In this document: positions 145 through 15,901 of the stretch, in pieces
How the letters are laid out: every line of letters begins with the position of its first letter
Position numbering within the stretch: position 1 is the stretch's first letter
From: a virus
UHGV virus genome: UHGV-1809260
Length of the DNA stretch: 16,081 nucleotides
Direction: 5' to 3' (one strand)
Translations under genes and position numbers: made by a program
Notes under the pieces: model-generated
Seen by the model: the letters and a program-made list of their open reading frames with translations, nothing else
Databases searched by the model: none
What the model was told of the DNA's origin: nothing

Positions 145-199
145 TTATGAATTCTGGTTAAAATCCATTCGATTATAAAAATGTATATCTCATGCTGTT

Positions 200-225
200 G
201 CCCGAACCCACTCGGGCTTTTTTTT
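200..225 (+). terminator. Rho-independent terminator (plus strand)
   Basis: Perfect hairpin gcccga-acccac-tcgggc (200-217) immediately followed by eight T (218-225). Confidence 0.6.
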
Positions 226-529: not shown

Positions 530-720
530 TGGAAGGATAGCGGTCATGTGATGCCGGTTTCCCGGTAACTCAGCACCGGTATCTGAGTCAACGTTTTCTC
601 TACTGGGTCATTTCCGATACGCCCTGCCTGCTGACAGGCTTTCATCACATCTGAAAATATAGCACCCTGACTGATACTGTAGTACCCAAGGTTCCAGAAA
701 CTGTGATGTATCCGGCACAG

Positions 721-969
721 AAAAGCCCCTCCGGAGAGGGGCTGGAGAGTGGCGCTATGTGCCATTGCATGGTGCCGGGTGCCTCCCGGTGAGTTCAGTA
801 TCAGCACCTGAACCCGCACAGAAAGGATAAGGGTCGGTGACAAAACACCAGTTGCTGATTGCCCCTCCGCACAGGGGGATTCACCATGCCAGTTTCTTTT
901 AACAAACTCCCCGCAAACCAGACAACAGTCAACCGCCTGAATTGTGAGGTATTTAAAAATTTCAACGGG
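721..969. repeat. Paralogous structured unit B (~250 bp), copy 2 of 2
   Basis: Same conserved blocks and the same two hairpins as unit A, in the same order and orientation; on the minus strand the gcccctc-cgga-gaggggc hairpin is followed by uuuucugug. Confidence 0.6.
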
Positions 970-2880: not shown

Positions 2881-3396
2881 TCACAGCACAATCTGTTTCA
2901 GTTTCTGTACCGCTTTCCCCATATCCGCCATAGCATCAACAAACTCATCAAATTTACGACTTGCCATTCCATACGCCTGGAGGATTTCCAGTTTCAGAGG
3001 ATCCAGTTGCTTTTTAATTTCCGCACGATCATTAAATTTCTTCTCTGCTTCTTCCGCAGCCCTGATCAGCTCCTCAGCATGCCTGCGTAATTCATCCGGA
3101 GTAACGGTCTTTTTAATCACAACGGGTTCCTCTGTTTTTACTGGTATTTCACTATTTACTGCCTGATGTCCAAATTTAGGATGATGTAACGTTGTAGTTC
3201 TTCCATCATTCGCAACGACCAGAAGTCCACTGTCGCGGATAATGCCAATGAGTATCTCCTTATCCCTTTTATTCAGTAGACTGTACGCCTGCACTTTCTG
3301 TGATATCTGGGTCAGTGTTGCGCCTTCCGGCATTCGTTCAACAAAACGTTTAACCCTGGATAAAACTGGCTGCAGATGGGGTGGTGTAATTCTCAT
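2881..3396 (-). CDS. Hypothetical phage protein (171 aa), possible winged-helix N-terminus and coiled-coil C-terminus
   Basis: ORF with GGGAGG Shine-Dalgarno 8 nt upstream of the ATG at 3396. C-terminal region is rich in E/K/A heptad-like sequence. No family recognised. Confidence 0.6.
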   Translation of the reverse strand: MRITPPHLQPVLSRVKRFVERMPEGATLTQISQKVQAYSLLNKRDKEILIGIIRDSGLLVVANDGRTTTLHHPKFGHQAVNSEIPVKTEEPVVIKKTVTPDELRRHAEELIRAAEEAEKKFNDRAEIKKQLDPLKLEILQAYGMASRKFDEFVDAMADMGKAVQKLKQIVL

Positions 3397-7528: not shown

Positions 7529-7749
7529 GCCACACCTCCCAGACGCTTAAACATTTTTCCGGAGCAAAAGGCTATAAGCGGCATACTGACGCGGTAATTA
7601 CGGCCCAGCGGTTCACAAATCACCTTCTGACATTCACGGTCAACCAGGCTAACACGTAGAACATGCCCTGCAGGCGTGGTGTACCACTGACCCGGACGAG
7701 GACAACGGAAAGTCTGATTGGTAAAACGTTTGAAAATATTCCGGATCAT
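7525..7749 (-). CDS. Hypothetical small protein (74 aa, four Cys)
   Basis: ATG at 7749 preceded by GGGGG with a 5-nt spacer; GTGA/ATGA overlaps with both neighbours. No family recognised. Confidence 0.55.
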   Translation of the reverse strand: MIRNIFKRFTNQTFRCPRPGQWYTTPAGHVLRVSLVDRECQKVICEPLGRNYRVSMPLIAFCSGKMFKRLGGVA

Positions 7750-8897
7750 TTGCGCCCCCTTGCCTCTGAAGGGTTCAGCGACAAATTTATGAGGCAGGCC
7801 AGCGCCGAAGCATCATTAATATAGTCATATAAGCTAACAGCCAGCGGAGATTCGGCTTTTGCCAACATAGGATAAAGCTGCTGCAGCCAGACCTGATGAA
7901 TTGATGAAATGTAGGAACAGAGAACGCTGGCGTTATGTGCAACGTCGCTCGGTACAGCAGGCTTTGAAAGCTGTTTCTCCATCTGGTTAAAGGCATTGAT
8001 GTATGCCTCTTTGAACTTGGCAGCACGTTTACCCGTGAAACCCATAGCAAGAAACGCAAAACCGTCGCGGGTGATTTGGTAACAAGGGAGTTTGCGGCCT
8101 GATGCGTCGGTGTATTCACTTAACACAAAAATGTGTTCAGTAAATTCAGCGGAACATTCGAGGTTTCTAATTCTATCTAAAACCCGCTCATGCCGTTTAG
8201 TAAAGTAATTAGCTACTGCAAGAGATGTGGTGACAACGCGACCATTGATAATCGTGATTTCAGGGTGAGATTGGGTTGGGAGAGTAGTCATGGTGACAGC
8301 CCCTATGTTGAATTCAATGAACTCACCACCAAGGCTTTCCACGACCATATAGGTGGTGAGACGTACAGGGGTGGAAATACCGGTCAACATAGAACCCGGC
8401 CCAACCGAAGTTGGCCCTGCACGCCCCACCATAATTTGGGCGTAACGATGCTCATGACACGAAAAAACCGCATGAGCGCGGTTGTGCTCTATATTGAATT
8501 TCGGGTTTCCACGCCCGGCACCCGCTTTATAAGGTGCCGGAACAGTGTAACGTCCCGGAATTGCAGAATCAATATGCTGGTGTTCCTTCACACTCAACAA
8601 AATCACGCCTGAATTTCCACAAAGGACTAAAGCACTCATGCGGGTAGTCTTTGCGAAGATAGATAACGCGCTGTGTTTCTGGCTCCCAACGAATAACATG
8701 GACATAAAGCCCTCTTCCGTCACGAAACCAGCGGTTAAGTTCCTGCACAACTCGCCCCCCACAGTCAGGTAAAGTTCTCTGTGGTTACTTACAGCCAGGT
8801 GATTTGGTAATCTGCATTCATGCCGTAACAACAGGTGTTCAGCGACGCTGACCACCAGCTGTTGCGACAAACGGTTATTTGCCGTTAAACTGTTCAT
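7746..8897 (-). CDS. Rha-family phage regulatory protein with an unusual ~200-aa N-terminal extension
   Basis: Residues ~203-305 (MTTLPTQSHPEITIINGRVVTTSLAVANYFTKRHERVLDRIRNLECSAEF...) match the Phage_pRha pattern. The frame stays open upstream to the ATG at 8897, which overlaps the upstream stop (ATGA) and has a GGAGA site. An internal ATG at 8291 also has an AGGGG site. Confidence 0.65.
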   Translation of the reverse strand: MNSLTANNRLSQQLVVSVAEHLLLRHECRLPNHLAVSNHRELYLTVGGELCRNLTAGFVTEEGFMSMLFVGSQKHSALSIFAKTTRMSALVLCGNSGVILLSVKEHQHIDSAIPGRYTVPAPYKAGAGRGNPKFNIEHNRAHAVFSCHEHRYAQIMVGRAGPTSVGPGSMLTGISTPVRLTTYMVVESLGGEFIEFNIGAVTMTTLPTQSHPEITIINGRVVTTSLAVANYFTKRHERVLDRIRNLECSAEFTEHIFVLSEYTDASGRKLPCYQITRDGFAFLAMGFTGKRAAKFKEAYINAFNQMEKQLSKPAVPSDVAHNASVLCSYISSIHQVWLQQLYPMLAKAESPLAVSLYDYINDASALACLINLSLNPSEARGRK

Positions 8898-9530: not shown

Positions 9531-9770
9531 TTAATAGCACTCAGGTAATCCATCATTTGGATTGGGGTAAATATCAGGACGCAGTTCATGAGGGGTCACG
9601 GACCAGTTTCCCAACTCACAAAGTTGTAAAACCCGTTCTGACGGGACTTGATTGTTAATTACCCAATTGGCGACGGATTGAGTGGACTTAAAACCAAAGC
9701 GACGGGCTACTTCAGATAAAGATTTTCCCGCAGCCTTTACTGCTTTCTCTGTGTAGTTTTGAGATGACAT
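9531..9770 (-). CDS. Cro-like (YdaS-like) HTH repressor
   Basis: 79 aa; AGGAG Shine-Dalgarno upstream of the ATG at 9770. HTH segment KSLSEVARRFGFKSTQSVANWV and a C-terminal HELRPDIYP motif. Divergent from the cI-like gene across an operator-containing intergenic region. Confidence 0.8.
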   Translation of the reverse strand: MSSQNYTEKAVKAAGKSLSEVARRFGFKSTQSVANWVINNQVPSERVLQLCELGNWSVTPHELRPDIYPNPNDGLPECY

Positions 9771-9840
9771 ACCTTTCTCCTCTGAAATTCAGAGGGATAA
9801 TGCTACTTAAAATAGCAAATTGCAACTACTTAAAATAGAA
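9771..9840. promoter_or_regulatory. Divergent PR/PRM-like promoter-operator region
   Basis: Two copies of CTACTTAAAATAG (9803-9815, 9826-9838) within 17-bp near-palindromes (TGCTACTTAAAATAGCA at 9801-9817). Separate palindrome CCTCTGAAATTCAGAGG at 9779-9795 overlapping the cro ribosome-binding site. Candidate PR on the minus strand: -35 TTGCAA (9820-9825), 17-bp spacer, -10 CATTAT (plus-strand coordinates 9797-9802). Confidence 0.5.
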
Positions 9841-10581
9841 ATGACTAGCGCGTGCGATGTGAGTAATCTTCTACCTATGGTAGAAGAACAGAAGTATCCA
9901 GATTTCGCCAAGAGACTAAACGAATTGATGACAATCAAAGGAATCTCTGTCACTCAACTCAAAAGTCTTGTGGGCGTTACATATGAAATGGCTCGTCGAT
10001 ACACAATCGGCGCAGCGAAGCCACGTGTCTCTGTCATGAGTAAACTTGCGTTGGCTCTTGGAGTATCAGCTTCATATCTAGAATATGGTGTTGGAGATAG
10101 AGAGGAATGTAAGGAAATGGCAAGCATCCCCAATCCAACAAAGCCCGATGTATACAGGATAGAAGTTTTGGATCTTAGCGTTAGCGCAGGACCTGGGACC
10201 TATATGCTTTCAGACTATGTTGATGTGCTCTACGCCATTGAGTTCACAACTGAACATGCCCGTTCTCTTTTCGGAAACCGTTCTCAGAATGATATAAAAG
10301 TTATGACGGTAAATGGAGATAGTATGTCCCCAACTCTTGTTTCCGGGGATCGATTGTTTGTCGACATTTCCGTTCGCCACTTCCAGACTGATGGAGTTTA
10401 CTCTTTCGTTTACGGTAAGACTTTCCATGTTAAACGTCTACAAATGCAAGGCAACAAACTAGCTGTTCTTTCGGATAACCCCGCCTATGAGAAATGGTAC
10501 ATTGATGAGAAGTCGCAAGATCAGCTTTATGTTATGGGTAAGGCACTGATTCATGAGTCGATTAAATATAATCGACTTTAA
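9841..10581 (+). CDS. cI-like prophage repressor (N-terminal HTH plus C-terminal S24 LexA-type autopeptidase)
   Basis: HTH segment ISVTQLKSLVGVTYEMARRYTIG; Ala-Gly cleavage site (SVSAGPG); catalytic Ser in VNGDSMSPT and Lys in FHVKRL. The track start at 9820 is TTG; I prefer the ATG at 9841, with 9877 as an alternative. Confidence 0.85.
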   Translation: MTSACDVSNLLPMVEEQKYPDFAKRLNELMTIKGISVTQLKSLVGVTYEMARRYTIGAAKPRVSVMSKLALALGVSASYLEYGVGDREECKEMASIPNPTKPDVYRIEVLDLSVSAGPGTYMLSDYVDVLYAIEFTTEHARSLFGNRSQNDIKVMTVNGDSMSPTLVSGDRLFVDISVRHFQTDGVYSFVYGKTFHVKRLQMQGNKLAVLSDNPAYEKWYIDEKSQDQLYVMGKALIHESIKYNRL

Positions 10582-10815: not shown

Positions 10816-11901
10816 ATGATTAATGAACGTACTGAAGCGACAGATGGGGTAGCAGATATGATTTCCACCAATACAAAATATTTAGTATGGAACAACAAAG
10901 GTGGTGTAGGAAAAACTTTTCTTACATATAATCTTGCCGTTGAGTTTGCTATATCTCATCCGGATCAAGATGTTGTGGTTATTGACTCATGCCCTCAATC
11001 AAACGTTTCAGAAATTATTCTTGGTGGCAATGGTACCGGGGAAGAAAATCTAAATAAATTGCGAGACAGAAATGTTACAATCGCAGGTTATATCAAGGAG
11101 CGTTTTAGCAAATCTCCTTTGTCTCGTTTAGGAAATGAATCTTCTTACTTTGTACGAGCCCATGATGTTAATGCAAAAATGCCAGAGAACTTATATATTC
11201 TTCCTGGTGATGTCGATCTTGATATCTGTTCACGCTTAATATCTCACATTGGCTCATCCCCAGTAAAAGAAGCATGGAAGAAAAGCCGATCTTTGCTGGT
11301 AGATCTAATAGCATCTTTTGAAGCCGATAAAAACATTTCTGACAGAGCAAAAACATTTTTTATTGATTGTAATCCAAGTTTTGCCAGCTACACAGAATTG
11401 GGAGTAGTCGCGGCAAATAGAATAATTATCCCTTGCACTGCCGATGCTGCATCAATTCGCGGAATAAAAAACCTTGTTAAACTTATTTATGGAGTGTCTA
11501 TTGACAAGTCAGAACAAGATGAAATGTTCTTAGATTTCAACAAAGAAGCAAAGCAAAACCTTATCGAACTACCTGAACTACACCTTTTCGTACAAAACCG
11601 CTCAAGAACTAATGAAAGTGATGCAGCAAAAGCATTCAAATCACATGCAGAAGAGATCAAAAGAATCACGGATGACCTGTTAAATACACATCCTCATCTG
11701 TTCACAAATGTGGCTACTTTCGAGAGAGTTCAAAATGTCAAAGATGGTAATACTCTTGCAGCAATAATAAACCATGAGGGATGCCCTTTAAGTAGGCTGC
11801 AGCATAAGAGTTACACTATCTATGGTATGGCGACCCAAGCTAATAGAGCACAAATTGAAGCACTAGAATCTGATGTTTCAACAGTAGTCAAGTGTCTGTA
11901 A
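10816..11901 (+). CDS. Orphan ParA/MinD/Soj-superfamily P-loop ATPase (361 aa) in an AT-rich island
   Basis: Deviant Walker A WNNKGGVGKT, Walker A'-like VVVIDSCPQSN and Walker B-like TFFIDCNPSF. About 130 extra C-terminal residues with no recognisable family. AGGA site upstream of the ATG. No ParB-like gene adjacent. Confidence 0.8.
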   Translation: MINERTEATDGVADMISTNTKYLVWNNKGGVGKTFLTYNLAVEFAISHPDQDVVVIDSCPQSNVSEIILGGNGTGEENLNKLRDRNVTIAGYIKERFSKSPLSRLGNESSYFVRAHDVNAKMPENLYILPGDVDLDICSRLISHIGSSPVKEAWKKSRSLLVDLIASFEADKNISDRAKTFFIDCNPSFASYTELGVVAANRIIIPCTADAASIRGIKNLVKLIYGVSIDKSEQDEMFLDFNKEAKQNLIELPELHLFVQNRSRTNESDAAKAFKSHAEEIKRITDDLLNTHPHLFTNVATFERVQNVKDGNTLAAIINHEGCPLSRLQHKSYTIYGMATQANRAQIEALESDVSTVVKCL

Positions 11902-11935
11902 TACAATAACCATGATTTAGAACGAACATAATTCT

Positions 11936-11962
11936 CGCCCGACCAACAGGTCGGGTTTTATA
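11936..11962 (+). terminator. Rho-independent terminator after the ParA-like gene
   Basis: Hairpin cccgacc-aaca-ggtcggg (11938-11955) followed by tttta. Confidence 0.6.
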
Positions 11963-12189
11963 CTCGTAGCCTGCTTAATAACACTGTTCCTGACCCGTTG
12001 TATCCATAGTTCCCACTATTTTCCCCAAAATTATTACTATCTAATTAACCTAATAATTAAACCAAAACAAAAGACACTCGATATTTTCTATACGTAACTA
12101 CACCACATCCCCCCATCTGTGAAAAACCTTTTAATTCATAACGTTATATAGAAAACTAAAAATTAAATACACACTTCTACTTTTTGTTG

Positions 12190-12218
12190 TTGATTTTTGC
12201 TACTTTTAGTAGCATCAT
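12190..12218 (+). promoter_or_regulatory. OL/PL-like operator-promoter
   Basis: Perfect 17-bp palindrome TGCTACTTTTAGTAGCA (12198-12214), closely related to the OR sites. Flanking TTGATT (12190-12195) and CATCAT (12213-12218) mirror the proposed PR -35/-10 with a near-identical 17-bp spacer. Confidence 0.4.
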
Positions 12219-12239
12219 TATCTGAACAAACAACAGACT

Positions 12240-12630
12240 GTTGTTAACGAAAGGTTGGTTGTAACACGGCGTATGGCACATGCGTCGTTAGCGGTCTGGG
12301 GACGTTAAAGGGGACAATCCACTCCTTGCTCGGGCAAACAAACCAGGTAGCCGGAATGTGCAAGTCAATGATGATGCTGATAAGACGCCTAACCAGCGTG
12401 GCGATTCGGTTTGACGCTTGGGAAGAGACCAGGGTGCAACGATGAGGGCATTTATGGAGCCGCGACAAAGTGTGGTGCCGTAACTGGCTAAGTGCTCTCA
12501 GCGTTGTGGTAATCCGCGAAATGGCGCGGCGGTAAGTATGGCGGGGTTACTCTTTCCCCGTTGAGGACACCGGATTGTCAGGTTGACCATACGCCTGAGT
12601 GACAACCCCACCACAACAGCCACTGCTTTG
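12240..12630 (+). other. Long GC-rich untranslated leader (possible structured RNA)
   Basis: No plus-strand ORF longer than 25 codons between OL/PL and the internal terminator; composition contrasts sharply with the AT-rich island upstream. The listed ORFs crossing it are minus-strand or frame read-through. Confidence 0.35.
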
Positions 12631-12678
12631 GCGGTACCAGTTTGTACACTTGCTTCCGGCTGGTACCGCTCTTTTTAC
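12631..12678 (+). terminator. Strong intrinsic terminator / attenuator inside the PL leader
   Basis: Perfect 10-bp stem gcggtaccag ... ctggtaccgc (12631-12640 / 12660-12669) with a 19-nt loop, followed by tctttttac. Confidence 0.55.
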
Positions 12679-12813
12679 AAAACAGAGAAGAGCATCACCG
12701 GACGACGGGCTCATAACCCAATCCATCCGGGCGGCTGCCACCGCAGGTGTTCTTCTCTGTTTTGTGGAGAAACCAACCGACCTTTCAGGGTCGATATGAT
12801 GAGGAGCAGCAAA

Positions 12814-13176
12814 ATGGCTAGCGAACGCAGTACTGATGTGCAGGCATTTATCGGGGAGCTGGACGGCGGCGTATTTGAAACCAAAATCGGCGCAGTTCTC
12901 AGTGAAGTCGCTTCCGGTGTGATGAACACGAAAACCAAAGGTAAGGTCTCACTCAACCTGGAAATCGAACCATTTGATGAGAACCGTGTGAAAATCAAAC
13001 ACAAACTCTCATATGTTCGCCCGACTAACCGCGGCAAAATTTCCGAAGAAGACACCACCGAAACGCCGATGTATGTCAATCGCGGTGGTCGCCTGACTAT
13101 TCTGCAGGAAGACCAGGGACAATTACTGACTCTTGCCGGTGAACCTGACGGAAAACTACGCGCAGCAGGTCATTAA
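12814..13176 (+). CDS. Hypothetical early protein (120 aa), YfdP-like
   Basis: ATG at 12814 preceded by AGGAG with a 7-nt spacer (MASERSTDVQAFIGELDGG...). The longer listed ORF from 12583 is a read-through extension across the terminator. Size and position resemble CPS-53-type yfdP (recollection). Confidence 0.65.
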   Translation: MASERSTDVQAFIGELDGGVFETKIGAVLSEVASGVMNTKTKGKVSLNLEIEPFDENRVKIKHKLSYVRPTNRGKISEEDTTETPMYVNRGGRLTILQEDQGQLLTLAGEPDGKLRAAGH

Positions 13177-13241
13177 TATCGTTCTTAATTAACTGATTAT
13201 TTATCTCATCACTGAATATCTTTATATAGTGAGGACTTATT

Positions 13242-14066
13242 ATGTCTCAGAACTTAGACGCAACCGCAATTAATCAAATCCATGCCCTTATTTCTGCTCA
13301 GGGTGTTAATGAAATTATCAGTAAGATTGGTGCCGATGCTGTGGCATTGCCTGAGAATTTCCGCATTCATGATCTGGAAAAATTTAATTTAAATCGCTTC
13401 CGTTTCCGTGGTGCGCTTTCCACTGCCAGCATCGATGACTTTACCCGTTATTCTAAAGATCTTGCAGATGAAGGCACCCGCTGCTTTATCGATGCTGATA
13501 ATATGCGTGCCGTCAGTGTACTTAACCTGGGTACTATTGATGAACCAGGTCACGCAGATAACACCGCCACTCTCAAACTGAAAAAGACAGCACCGTTCTC
13601 TGCCCTGCTGTCTGTTAACGACGAGCGTAACTCCCAGAAGTCACTGGCAGAATGGATTGAAGACTGGGCCGACTACCTTGTGGGCTTTGATGCTAATGGT
13701 GACGCTATTCAGGCAACAAAAGCGGCTGCGGCAGTCCGTAAAATCACGATTGAAGCAAACCAGACCGCTGATTTTGAAGATAATGACTTCAGCGGCAAAC
13801 GCTCCCTGATGGAATCTGTCGAAGCGAAGACCAAAGACATTATGCCAGTGGCATTTGAATTTAAATGCGTTCCGTTTGAAGGTCTGAAAGAACGTCCGTT
13901 TAAATTACGCCTCAGCATTATCACTGGCGATCGTCCTGTACTGGTTCTGCGCATTATTCAGCTGGAAGCGGTGCAGGAAGATATGGCTAACGAATTTCGT
14001 GATCTGCTTGTTGAGAAATTCAAAGACAGCAAAGTAGAAACCTTTATTGGTACTTTCACCGCCTGA
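13242..14066 (+). CDS. DUF2303-family prophage protein (274 aa), YfdQ-like
   Basis: GAGGA Shine-Dalgarno upstream of the ATG. Length and sequence character match my recollection of the YfdQ/DUF2303 family. Confidence 0.7.
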
Positions 14067-14194
14067 TTTCATTACTGCAAATGCCCCTGCGGGGGCATTT
14101 ATGGAAACGTAATTAACTCAATAATCGCCGGATGGTGCGGGATTCCTTTTACCCGAATTCAGCGCGGTGCAGCGCATATAAAGTGGAGAACGAA

Positions 14195-14731
14195 ATGTCA
14201 TTTATTAAAACTTTTTCCGGGAAGCATTTTTATTATGACAAGATAAATAAAGACGACATCGTTATTAACGATATCGCGGTTTCCCTTTCAAATATCTGTC
14301 GCTTTGCAGGACATCTTTCACACTTCTACAGTGTCGCCCAGCATGCGGTGCTTTGCAGCCAGCTGGTGCCGCAGGAATTTGCTTTTGAAGCGTTAATGCA
14401 TGATGCAACAGAAGCGTATTGCCAGGACATCCCCGCACCACTGAAACGACTTCTTCCTGACTATAAACGGATGGAAGAAAAAATAGACGCCGTAATCCGT
14501 GAGAAATACGGGTTACCTCCTGTTATGAGCACGCCAGTGAAATATGCCGATCTCATCATGCTGGCAACCGAACGCCGCGATCTCGGGCTTGATGATGGCT
14601 CTTTCTGGCCAGTACTGGAAGGTATCCCGGCAACAGAAATGTTCAAAGTTATTCCACTGGCTCCGAGCCATGCCTACGGGATGTTTATGGAGCGCTTTAA
14701 CGAGTTATCGGAGTTACGCACATGCGCATGA
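14195..14731 (+). CDS. HD-domain phosphohydrolase (YfdR-like putative 5'-deoxynucleotidase)
   Basis: H...HD metal-binding signature (SVAQHAV ... LMHDATEAY). Preferred start is the ATG at 14195 (MSFIKTF...) preceded by GGAGAA, giving 178 aa; the listed ORF starts 21 codons upstream. Confidence 0.75.
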   Translation: MSFIKTFSGKHFYYDKINKDDIVINDIAVSLSNICRFAGHLSHFYSVAQHAVLCSQLVPQEFAFEALMHDATEAYCQDIPAPLKRLLPDYKRMEEKIDAVIREKYGLPPVMSTPVKYADLIMLATERRDLGLDDGSFWPVLEGIPATEMFKVIPLAPSHAYGMFMERFNELSELRTCA

Positions 14732-15333
14732 ATGTTTTCGAAATGGAAGGGTTTCTTCGCGGGAAATGTGTACCACGAGATCTGAAAGTGAATGAAACAA
14801 ATGCTGAATATCTGGTGCGTAAATTTGCTGAAGCGGAGGCCAAGATTTTGGCTCTGTCCGAAGACCAACAGAAAGCGATTGAGTCAATTAAGCAGGCTGA
14901 TGCAGCTGTTAAGTTGGCACACGAGAAGTTTTCGGCGCTGGCGGCGGAGAATGCGGGGCTGAAACACGCAATGGCCGTAACTCTTGAGCATGTGTCGGTC
15001 ACGGATGCAGGGCAGGCTGGTGTTGCTGCAATGATTATCAACGATGCCCTGCACCACAGCGAAACTCCAGCCACCGATGCTTTCCTGGCTGAAATTCGTG
15101 CGGAAGCACGCAACGAGGGGATTAACTATACCGCAAGCCGTCTTGCTGCTGCTTTCAATCACGGATTTATCAATAAGTCTTTACGTGAAGTTTTCGACGT
15201 TACACGCATGATTCTGTCAGCGAAAGAAGAGTTGGCTAATGAACCACACCCGATTGATGGCCTGTCCGGTGAATATGCGGAGAAATCCCTAGAAGAATGG
15301 GCGGAACAGATTCGCAAAGGAGGCAACCAGTGA
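14722..15333 (+). CDS. Hypothetical phage protein (203 aa), alanine-rich, predicted helical
   Basis: ORF overlaps the upstream stop; GGAG upstream of the ATG. No family recognised. Confidence 0.55.
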   Translation: MRMNVFEMEGFLRGKCVPRDLKVNETNAEYLVRKFAEAEAKILALSEDQQKAIESIKQADAAVKLAHEKFSALAAENAGLKHAMAVTLEHVSVTDAGQAGVAAMIINDALHHSETPATDAFLAEIRAEARNEGINYTASRLAAAFNHGFINKSLREVFDVTRMILSAKEELANEPHPIDGLSGEYAEKSLEEWAEQIRKGGNQ

Positions 15334-15554
15334 GCGGAAAAAGAATGACTAACAGAGAGCTTGTTGATGCCGCGATTAAGCTTGCTGGTGATTTTTATTC
15401 AATGATGGGGTACGCGCATCGCCCTGGATTCAAATATTGGGAATCACCGCATCCGCAAGAGCAACTGGTATTTCAAATGGCCTGCCGTGCTTTTGAGGTT
15501 ATTCGCGGTTCTGATGTGATGGACGCCGTTGCCGACTTGGAGGATGAAGAGTGA
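15330..15554 (+). CDS. Hypothetical small protein (~74 aa)
   Basis: GTG at 15330 preceded by GGAGG with a 6-nt spacer and overlapping the upstream stop (GTGA); the ATG at 15345 is an alternative. The listed ORF from 15297 is a frame extension. Confidence 0.5.
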   Translation: MSGKRMTNRELVDAAIKLAGDFYSMMGYAHRPGFKYWESPHPQEQLVFQMACRAFEVIRGSDVMDAVADLEDEE

Positions 15555-15901
15555 CCCAAATTAACTATCAGGCACTGCGTGAGGCAGCAGTAGCAATTGA
15601 AACAGTGGCAACGCCTCAAAAATTGCAGGCGTTTCGGATGAAGGTCACACCGTCGGTAGTACTGGCGCTGCTGGATGAAATTAAGCGCCTGGAGGACACA
15701 AATATTGATGCTATGTGCCGAATTGCAGAACTGGAAGCGAGGGAAGTTCAATTACCGACTCGCTACGACCTTCGATATGGACACCCGATAAATGCAGATG
15801 AGCGACAAGTCATGATACCTAAAGAAAATGGCAGTTGGCTTTACCTGATTGACCTAGAACACGCATTACGCGTCGCTGACATTCGCATCAAAGGAGAGTG
15901 A
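15551..15901 (+). CDS. Hypothetical phage protein (116 aa)
   Basis: GTG start overlapping the upstream stop, preceded by GAGGA. No family recognised. Confidence 0.55.
   Translation: MTQINYQALREAAVAIETVATPQKLQAFRMKVTPSVVLALLDEIKRLEDTNIDAMCRIAELEAREVQLPTRYDLRYGHPINADERQVMIPKENGSWLYLIDLEHALRVADIRIKGE

Follow-up and report, generated by a model that had tools for sequence, protein, structure and literature searches.

DicF, the small RNA of the Qin prophage of Escherichia coli K-12, arises by early transcription termination combined with RNase E processing and by RNase III cleavage of read-through RNA, the latter yielding a 72-nucleotide (nt) product (PMC9438474). A second prophage RNA, the 193-nt sRNA-17, was mapped by 5′/3′ rapid amplification of cDNA ends (RACE) and Northern blot in the mEp460-like prophage of E. 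coli K1 RS218, whose authors obtained no hit to any Rfam family with it (Sun et al. 2020, PMC7719688). Here, we compare with these systems the leader at positions 12240-12813 of the UHGV virus genome UHGV-1809260 (the whole stretch of 16,081 nt is hereafter called the window), which is a lambdoid prophage of the SfV, cdtI, mEp460 and Stx2c-phage type. The leader extends from a putative early-left promoter, PL, to a homologue of yfdP and recurs entirely, at 98-99% identity, in phages cdtI, Ayreon and 2H10 and in fifteen Stx2c phages, in whose records it is either unannotated or given hypothetical open reading frames (ORFs) on the minus strand. It is a chain of RNA modules, designated A, B and C, each of which is present separately in other phages, and its terminator-proximal small RNA is a new allele of the known DicF locus and of sRNA-17.

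Folding of the entire leader was uninformative (z-scores of just -1.9 for the plus and -2.7 for the minus strand), and only comparison of single modules proved decisive. Sensitive BLAST search against phage genomes was used to split the 570-nt leader, and since its pieces matched different phages (Table 1) each piece was analysed alone. Folding together with covariation analysis, suggested as a check in a preliminary description of the locus, gave compensatory changes in modules A, B and C. The "structured riboregulator" of that description holds only in the broad sense that conserved structured RNA makes up the entire stretch, while the separate mobility of the modules and the homology to the dicF locus had gone unseen there. 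Rfam gave no match in the leader, either at gathering thresholds in the search of the window or at E-values up to 10 within 11900-12900.

Module B ties the leader to Qin. Its segment 12503-12609 is 93.5% identical to the K-12 Qin sequence lying between ydfC and dicB, directly upstream of dicF, and the annotated "dicF-like region" of phage P1 overlaps at its beginning with a copy of about 75% identity in the ban leader. In the structural alignment of 16 sequences, 93.7% of cells are paired compared to 35-56% in slid controls, with eight compensatory pairs; support from covariation is moderate because most compensatory changes stem from the P1 copy. Past module B stands the strong intrinsic terminator which the preliminary description had placed at 12631-12678 and which proved to be real: the 13-base-pair (bp) stem with a 15-nt loop, followed by CUUUUU to 12676, folds with -21.2 kcal/mol (z = -5.0), and none of 200 shuffles folds as well. 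A simple terminator scan overlooked it because its loop is longer than 8 nt. Homologues retain a strong hairpin with U-tract at this position, built from differing stem sequences, and over 15 representative loci module B is nearly constant, whereas the small-RNA part is hypervariable but always ends in a strong hairpin and U-tract.

The same succession is found at the dicF locus of Qin. Both loci belong to a repressor-controlled early operon of a lambdoid prophage, both carry the small-RNA hairpin with its U-tract at the same distance past module B (the K-12 DicF match, at 3133-3184 of the Qin locus, stands nine bases past the module B end), both have a long stem after the terminator, and in both the downstream protein genes depend on read-through (PMC9438474). 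They differ in that the window lacks the 5′ 19 nt of DicF and has another, longer stem, and in what precedes module B, namely full module A in the window and ydfA, ydfB and ydfC with a remnant of the P6 helix in Qin. The window segment UUUGGCGGUAcCAGUUU aligns with K-12 DicF, the shared stretch being UUUGGCGGUA(C/U)CAGUUU. The predicted window RNA lies in an early prophage operon directly after module B and ends in an intrinsic terminator; it is a DicF-position paralogue.

The position of sRNA-17 was established from the supplement to PMC7719688 and the sequence of mEp460. Counting 193 nt back from ...CGCUCUUUU (...CUGGUACCGCUCUUUU in DNA) in mEp460 lands exactly on GUUGUGGUGAAUGCG, with which the full-length rows of the supplementary sRNA-17 alignment start. 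Thus delimited, sRNA-17 runs from GUUGUGG to CUCUUUU and equals the mEp460 cassette plus the same terminator as in the window; in view of these ends, with the U-tract at the 3′ side, it would be sense to PL. Location and phage family coincide, since both RNAs extend from 5′ GUUGUGG to the terminator, with CGCUCUUUU at the 3′ end, upstream of yfdP. Their bodies are different, cassette B′ in sRNA-17 and Qin-type cassette B in the window: the window and mEp460 are identical from 12609 onward, the match to sRNA-17 comprises 12609-12675 only, i.e. ~65 nt including the terminator, and full-length identity to the 193-nt RNA is not observed, as module B replaces cassette B′. In its available parts, PMC7719688 lists window-type sequences among "degenerative sRNA-17" and does not relate sRNA-17 to dicF, PL or a cis-acting terminator. 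The "processed small RNA" that had been offered as one explanation of the leader gains support here, because the terminator closes a DicF-position RNA whose mEp460 allele was mapped as sRNA-17 (PMC7719688). After deletion of sRNA-17, its authors counted 47 yfdP reads instead of 0.49 and 8.5 yfdR reads instead of 0 (PMC7719688). Both genes follow closely on the 3′ side in these phages, which makes loss of a cis-acting terminator a possible and simpler reading of this rise.

The flanks GTTGTGG and CCACAAC enclose different cassettes: B in the window, Qin and P1, B′ in mEp460 (there between GTTGTGG and CACCACAAC), and B″ in SfV and ST64B. Besides forming an RNA helix, these flanks may act as a joint for recombination, and the exchange of cassettes between GUUGUGG and CCACAAC appears undescribed in the literature covered by our limited search. 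Cassette B″ of SfV and ST64B carries an STnc100-like hairpin, CCGGGAGGCACCCGG, and a B″-like cassette is located directly after dicF in Qin. The PL leaders of SfV and ST64B start with another conserved element, CAGGCAGGACGCCCACGAAGTAGCCGCC..GGCATAYGAA, instead of module A; both module A and this element occur at locus L093, and the ST64B leader contains ~700 nt of further GC-rich non-coding sequence. Prophage small RNAs of the STnc100 (RF02076)/PasD type share with module B and its terminator the general layout, i.e. a helix-closed cassette, short spacer and intrinsic terminator in a phage operon leader. Their closing helix is CAUGGUG/CACCAUG as opposed to GUUGUGG/CCACAAC in the window, and the pseudoknotted interior of module B is unlike STnc100. 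The STnc100 model matches the window only at 226-435 and 713-918, with no match in 11900-12900 at E-values up to 10.

Beyond the terminator, module C folds into a long stem with -47.3 kcal/mol (z = -6.55) and closes a three-way junction (Table 1). It stands right after the terminator in 13 distinct variants among phage, viral-contig and genome loci, which differ in downstream genes, and six of its pairs covary. In Qin, a comparable long stem, read by eye, is located 3′ of the dicF terminator, and by analogy with dicBF (PMC9438474) module C is probably an RNase III site. The promoter scan gave no separate yfdP promoter in 12678-12813 at its threshold, and phage records annotate the yfdP homologue from the ATG at 12814.

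Taken together, we consider it reasonably probable that PL drives a non-coding RNA unit which mostly terminates, gives rise to small RNAs by processing and acts as a gate for yfdP and subsequent genes. Upon loss of repressor, PL would transcribe module A first as a pseudoknotted RNA of ~250 nt, and then module B with the hairpin and U-tract, where most polymerases would stop at 12672-12676. Cleavage at the junction of A and B would release a small RNA of ~173 nt (12503-12675) and leave module A as a separate structured RNA, while the minority of read-through RNA would be cut in the module C stem and translated from yfdP onward. The terminator would thereby double as a small-RNA maker and a brake on downstream genes, as in the ydfABC-dicF-dicB operon. 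The G-rich structured RNA would offer little for Rho to load on, because G exceeds C across 12200-12600, where the skew is positive. Conserved structure of all modules, homology to dicF and sRNA-17, the terminator and the lack of N, put and a conserved boxA are direct observations, whereas we infer the processing sites and enzymes, the extent of read-through, the targets of the small RNA and any function of module A other than that of a stable 5′ domain poor in Rho-loading sequence.

Several observations weigh against this account. The Rfam DicF model (RF00039), which recovers its positive controls (76.7 bits for K-12 Qin and 77 bits for locus L143) and recognises two of nine B-bearing loci tested, has no match in the window at gathering threshold nor in 12590-12700 at E-values up to 10. 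Complement search detected in K-12 DicF a 12-nt complement to positions -12 to -1 of ftsZ, and this stretch is absent from the window RNA, whose best ftsZ matches are 9 nt long with one mismatch allowed, at +2 to +10 in the start of the coding sequence and at -18 to -10, the latter just touching the 5′ edge of the Shine-Dalgarno sequence; global duplex energies to ftsZ gave no discrimination. The window small RNA, being predicted, shares just the last ~65 nt with sRNA-17. The authors of sRNA-17 interpret the regulation as acting in trans and propose an ArcA-controlled promoter (PMC7719688), and a marker promoter in their deletion construct could also explain the rise of yfdP. If termination is efficient, the expression of xis, int and other PL genes without N is not accounted for, and neither is the strong conservation of module A with its 19-nt invariant single-stranded stretch.

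It is module A that dominates the 5′ half of the leader. Its structure was derived from an alignment of 27 diverse copies below 90% identity, in which 95.5% of cells are paired compared to 28-48% in slid controls, compensatory changes affect 18 of 39 pairs, and the covariation score is reached by none of 500 shuffles; in helix P6 five of 13 pairs covary, and the lone varying pair of the pseudoknot is C-G in 21 sequences and A-U in six. The window copy forms every helix of the consensus (P1, P2, P4, pseudoknot, P5 and P6) and carries the invariant GGUAGCCGGAAUGUGCAAG. No Rfam 15 family matched the window copy or one divergent copy, even at permissive thresholds, and as an RNA family module A, absent from Rfam 15, appears undescribed in the literature covered by the limited search.

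These substitution patterns bear on the idea that the leader is a decayed pseudogene, derived for instance from N or some other early gene, or encodes a protein from an unusual start, an outcome which the preliminary description had named beforehand as speaking against its reading. Minus-strand hypothetical ORFs annotated in phage records and ORFs of up to 74 amino acids with GTG or TTG starts would fit it. The leader had been called ORF-free, and for ATG starts it is; with GTG/TTG starts, the plus strand holds ORFs of 39 (12326-12445) and 66 (12599-12799) amino acids, and the yfdP frame is open from 12583. Over the 27 homologues, however, the longest open stretch varies in strand and frame, 123 of 159 indel runs (77%) are not multiples of three, and there is no conserved ORF within 12240-12813. 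Helices of modules A, B and C are preserved by compensatory changes, and the same modules are non-coding in P1 and epsilon15-like phages. Covariation and frame analysis rule against the pseudogene, for which we retain a practically negligible probability.

In IMG/VR, at least 120 viral contigs carry the 19-mer of module A; they yield 110 distinct sequences, which form 41 clusters below 90% identity. Among species-representative genomes, the 19-mer recurs in 24 stretches, 22 from Enterobacterales (Escherichia, Klebsiella, Citrobacter, Kosakonia, Enterobacter, Erwinia and others) and two from doubtful Bacillota bins. Among 115 distinct contexts, module A is followed by tRNA-Arg(UCU) in 24-25, by module B in 24 and by other cassettes in 16, and it is preceded by a tRNA in 13, P1 types being among the latter. 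In epsilon15-like phages its last bases (GUUGUGG) are shared with the beginning of tRNA-Arg(UCU), and in P1 its core is positioned between tRNA-Ile2 and ban, within the C1-controlled ban operon. The core (P1-P5) and P6 are separable, since phage P1 has the core alone, the match stopping at 12430. A terminator-like hairpin with U-tract follows in 85 of the 93 distinct contexts having P6, at a median distance of about 60-180 nt irrespective of whether B, B′/B″, tRNA-Arg or nothing intervenes. In view of these varied contexts and following terminators, module A is a 5′ domain that heads short non-coding transcription units, whose 3′ cargo can be swapped. Sigma-70-like promoters stand ~50 nt upstream of some copies, e.g. 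TTGACC-17-GATACT at locus L015; promoter scores upstream of the 41 clusters are barely higher than in shuffled sequences (mean of 7.1 versus 6.8), and about 16 copies have a promoter with at least 9/12 matches at the steady distance of ~50 nt. An own promoter is a property of some module-A copies only.

Further variants were observed among the copies. Of module A, K-12 Qin (locus L008, 2960-3000) keeps just a P6 remnant (AACGCGAAAGCGCA ... TGCGCTTCCGGTT), which precedes module B, and the core is missing. The variable P6 insert of some copies (Table 1) holds tRNA-like fragments, e.g. GGTTCGATTCC and then an acceptor-like strand. At 9160-9340 of L015 there is no B cassette, and a DicF-like small RNA (GCUGUGUGUAGUCUUGGCGG...), a terminator and a module C-like stem come immediately after module A; the single-stranded 5′ parts of small RNAs of this type belong to few alternative types and resemble alternative seed sequences.

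GOLLD and ROOL are large phage-borne structured RNAs of about 580-800 nt that often adjoin tRNA genes. Module A is likewise phage-encoded, complex, highly conserved and often located beside tRNA genes, but it is about 250 nt long, confined to Enterobacterales and has no Rfam match to those families. Tentatively, it may constitute a new class of complex phage RNA with its own function, either on a conserved host machine, for which a tRNA-targeting defence nuclease, an RNase, Rho and RNA polymerase are candidates, or as a general 5′ scaffold that may direct production of the downstream small RNA or tRNA. With the same reserve, its synthesis would precede that of the cargo, a tRNA or small RNA to which it is often joined, and would start from an early promoter or from one dedicated to it. 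A related explanation regards module A as an autonomous trans-acting RNA that would serve as decoy or sponge for a host component, e.g. an RNase, a nuclease of tRNA-directed defence or some other conserved factor, and whose position after PL just times its expression. Its presence in unrelated phages (P1, epsilon15-like and lambdoid) sharing no neighbouring protein gene, invariant single-stranded stretches together with the pseudoknot, adjacency to tRNAs (tRNA-Arg(UCU) downstream, other tRNAs upstream in P1 types), promoters and terminators of its own in some copies and confinement to Enterobacterales are all consistent with such a role. A cis role as folding, stability or processing scaffold, however, fits equally, and tRNA adjacency could merely reflect shared processing. 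We regard action in trans as possible but doubtful; it can coexist with the PL-driven, mostly terminating unit.

Alternatively, module A and/or module B might bind polymerase or block Rho and so carry transcription past the terminator at 12676 and past later ones, replacing N by RNA-based antitermination of other than put type. The claim that the operon has no N gene was borne out, as the leader has no conserved ORF and no N-like Pfam domain was found in the six plus-strand ORFs of 12814-15901. Arrangement also speaks for antitermination: structured modules lie between promoter and strong terminator similarly to putL, and module B precedes the terminator in Qin, P1 and the window. The put RNAs of HK022 and HK639 are, like the leader, structured RNAs made straight from PL in a lambdoid phage without N, and module A starts ~40 nt past putative PL; it is nevertheless ~250 nt long, has other architecture and occurs also in short terminator-ended units outside early operons. 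By eye, hairpin P1 (CGGCGUAUGGCACAUGCGUCG) looks similar to put stem I (CGGCG...CAUGCGUCG), and a likeness to HK639 stem II is seen in the GGAAGAG loop; both may serve as a lead only. A covariance model built from 18 putL/putR sequences, including HK022 putR and HK639 putL, with the consensus of two stem-loops over about 70 nt (CGAACGGCGCG...CAUGCGUCGG...GGCGGG...CAAU), was used without filters to search the window and ten loci. It recovers HK022 putL (E = 1.5e-24) and putR (E = 1.1e-11) from its training set, whereas neither the leader nor the PR side contains a match, the best window hits (E = 5.7 and 8.6) falling in unrelated places, so that the put-like antiterminator proposed initially finds no counterpart here. 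BLAST against the HK022 immunity region returned an operator-like 11-mer only. RNAs of putL type (TAAACCATGCGTCGG) are themselves common, being detected in at least 120 IMG/VR viral contigs (L236-L349), and putL stem II covaries, with eight of 15 predicted pairs compensatory.

The suggested boxA resemblance after the stem did not hold either: CGCTCTTTTTA consists of the 3′ half of the terminator stem and the U-tract and changes along with the stem in homologues, where its counterparts are GCTCTTTTT, GCCCTTTTT, GACCTTTTT and CATTTTTT. Features of lambda N/nut are not seen at this place, i.e. there is no conserved boxA (CGCTCTTA-like) and no following 15-nt boxB-like hairpin, and module C occupies the site. 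Antitermination is also disfavoured by the epsilon15-like unit of module A and tRNA-Arg, which ends at a terminator ~150 nt later and so has nothing to antiterminate over distance, by the stop of the unit at a terminator in almost all contexts, and by the RS218 lysogen, where (module A being assumed upstream, as in mEp460) sRNA-17 is detectable and yfdP stays at 0.49 reads until the terminator region is deleted (PMC7719688). We hold this explanation to be unlikely.

Complex pseudoknotted folds with invariant junction bases might also suggest a riboswitch, sensing a ligand or temperature and choosing between termination at 12676 and read-through. By eye, GUUG at 12503-12506 has two potential partners, one within P6 and one within the helix that closes module B, making two structures possible. 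Yet the terminator stem takes part in no alternative pairing, no riboswitch family of Rfam matches, and what lies between module A and the terminator is swapped freely (B, B′, B″, tRNA or none), a freedom incompatible with an expression platform. Such a switch is therefore regarded as very improbable, and the PL-driven unit with terminator-made small RNA remains the account we favour.

Table 1. Coordinates of leader elements and related features (positions in the window unless a locus is named)
Feature	Position	Strand	Details
OL, two repressor operators	12177-12189; 12200-12212		CTACTTTTTGTTG; CTACTTTTAGTAG; 23 bp apart; overlap putative PL
Putative PL promoter	12190-12195; 12213-12218		TTGATT, 17-bp spacer, CATCAT; hexamers weak (8/12), read by eye
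Module A, core domain	12253-12436	+	Alignment of homologues, compensatory changes; module A as a whole spans 12253-12510
Module A, hairpin P1	12267-12274/12280-12287	+	
Module A, helix P2	12295-12299/12343-12347	+	Encloses variable hairpins
Module A, invariant 19-mer	12346-12364	+	GGUAGCCGGAAUGUGCAAG (DNA GGTAGCCGGAATGTGCAAG); single-stranded; variable hairpin next
Module A, P4	12385-12388/12396-12399	+	7-nt loop
Module A, pseudoknot	loop 12391-12394 with 12408-12411	+	Loop MACC, downstream GGUK
Module A, P5	12417-12421/12429-12433	+	Loop GAAGAGA
Module A, P6 domain (12437-12506)	12437-12450/12493-12506	+	Long helix round variable insert
Module B cassette	12503-12617	+	Closing helix GUUGUGG 12503-12509/CCACAAC 12611-12617
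Module B, hairpin	12514-12518/12525-12529	+	
Module B, pseudoknot	12536-12541/12587-12592 with 12572-12580/12600-12608	+	GUAUGG/CCAUAC with UUGUCA/UGACAA
Module B, variable hairpin	12542-12546/12556-12560	+	
Intrinsic terminator/DicF-position hairpin	12630-12676	+	Stem 12630-12642/12658-12670, U-tract 12672-12676
Predicted 173-nt small RNA	12503-12675	+	Module B plus terminator hairpin; positional counterpart of sRNA-17
Module C	12675-12779	+	21-bp stem 12675-12696/12746-12767 closing three-way junction that holds conserved GACGGGCUCAUAACCCAAUCCA
Conserved single-stranded GGAGAAACCAAC	12768-12779	+	3′ of module C stem
yfdP start region	12778-12816	+	Hairpin 12778-12783/12788-12793, Shine-Dalgarno GAGGAG 12801-12806, ATG 12814
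Match to phiV10 and TL-2011b	12266-12509		82% identity
Match to P1 and P7	12255-12430		78% identity
Match to SPN1S and a Klebsiella phage	12343-12452		
Match to PPompW-type prophages and an Actinobacillus phage	12503-12625		
Match to SfV and SfII	12629-12815		
Match to ST64B	12671-12777		
GTTGTGG/CCACAAC flank sites	12503-12509, 12611-12617; L002 3758-3890; L358 1058-1180; L357 997-1118		
CAGGCAGGACGCCCACGAAGTAGCCGCC element	L358 400-470; L357 640-710; L093 about 11190-11250		SfV (L358); ST64B (L357); flank upstream of the L093 module-A copy
Module A copies with tRNA-like P6 insert	L006 1427-1733; L086 967-1264; L105 3508-3787		

The surroundings of the leader agree with its place in an early-left operon. 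The preliminary description proposed an OL/PL-like site at ~12190-12218, and this assignment is supported by the operator pair (Table 1), because related operator-like sites between cro and cI, at 9803-9815 and 9826-9838, are also spaced by 23 bp. Its statement that the leader is GC-rich was likewise confirmed, the GC fraction being 0.475-0.565 over 12200-12800 versus 0.285-0.41 in the flanks. Pfam identified an S24-peptidase/HTH repressor at 9820-10581 on the plus strand and a Cro-like gene at 9531-9770 on the minus strand, and a CII-like gene is also present. On the 3′ side, the yfdP homologue (12814-13176, 120 amino acids) has no Pfam match and owes its name to database annotation; yfdQ/DUF2303 at 13242-14066 is assigned by Pfam, and a YfbR-like match is weak (E = 3.5e-5, below the Pfam cut-off). 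Between cI and OL, where lambda has rexAB, lies a low-GC (0.36-0.40) ORF of 361 amino acids (10816-11901) similar to ParA/AAA_31 ATPases, with its own terminator at 11937-11956, which may be a lysogen-expressed accessory gene or defence gene. The tRNA/tmRNA scan detected neither in the window, and Rfam matches outside the leader comprise two STnc100 copies, AsxR, C4 and isrK. Of these, the STnc100 copies (226-435 and 713-918, minus strand) and AsxR (170-222, plus strand) belong to the late-operon leader. The C4 antisense RNA (8349-8436) and isrK (8461-8537) are encoded on the minus strand inside a 383-amino-acid ORF, 7746-8897, annotated in phage records as antirepressor or "transcriptional regulator"; the true coding sequence is probably shorter and preceded by an RNA switch of the P1 immI/Gifsy IsrK type.

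In terms of prophage biology, dicF is recast as the variable tail of a larger conserved modular RNA unit, common to Qin, P1, Stx2c, cdtI, mEp460 and SfV-type phages, in which conservation is higher for the upstream pseudoknotted domain, module B, than for the small RNA. The sRNA-17 of neonatal-meningitis E. coli becomes tied to this dicF-type unit, making a cis reading possible for its strongest transcriptome effect, that on yfdP and yfdR. Module A adds a strongly covarying RNA of ~250 nt, unannotated in well-studied coliphages including P1 and Stx-converting phages. For widespread lambdoid phages with neither N nor put, the way in which early-left expression proceeds past a strong terminator is now a concrete question that may be approached by defined deletions.

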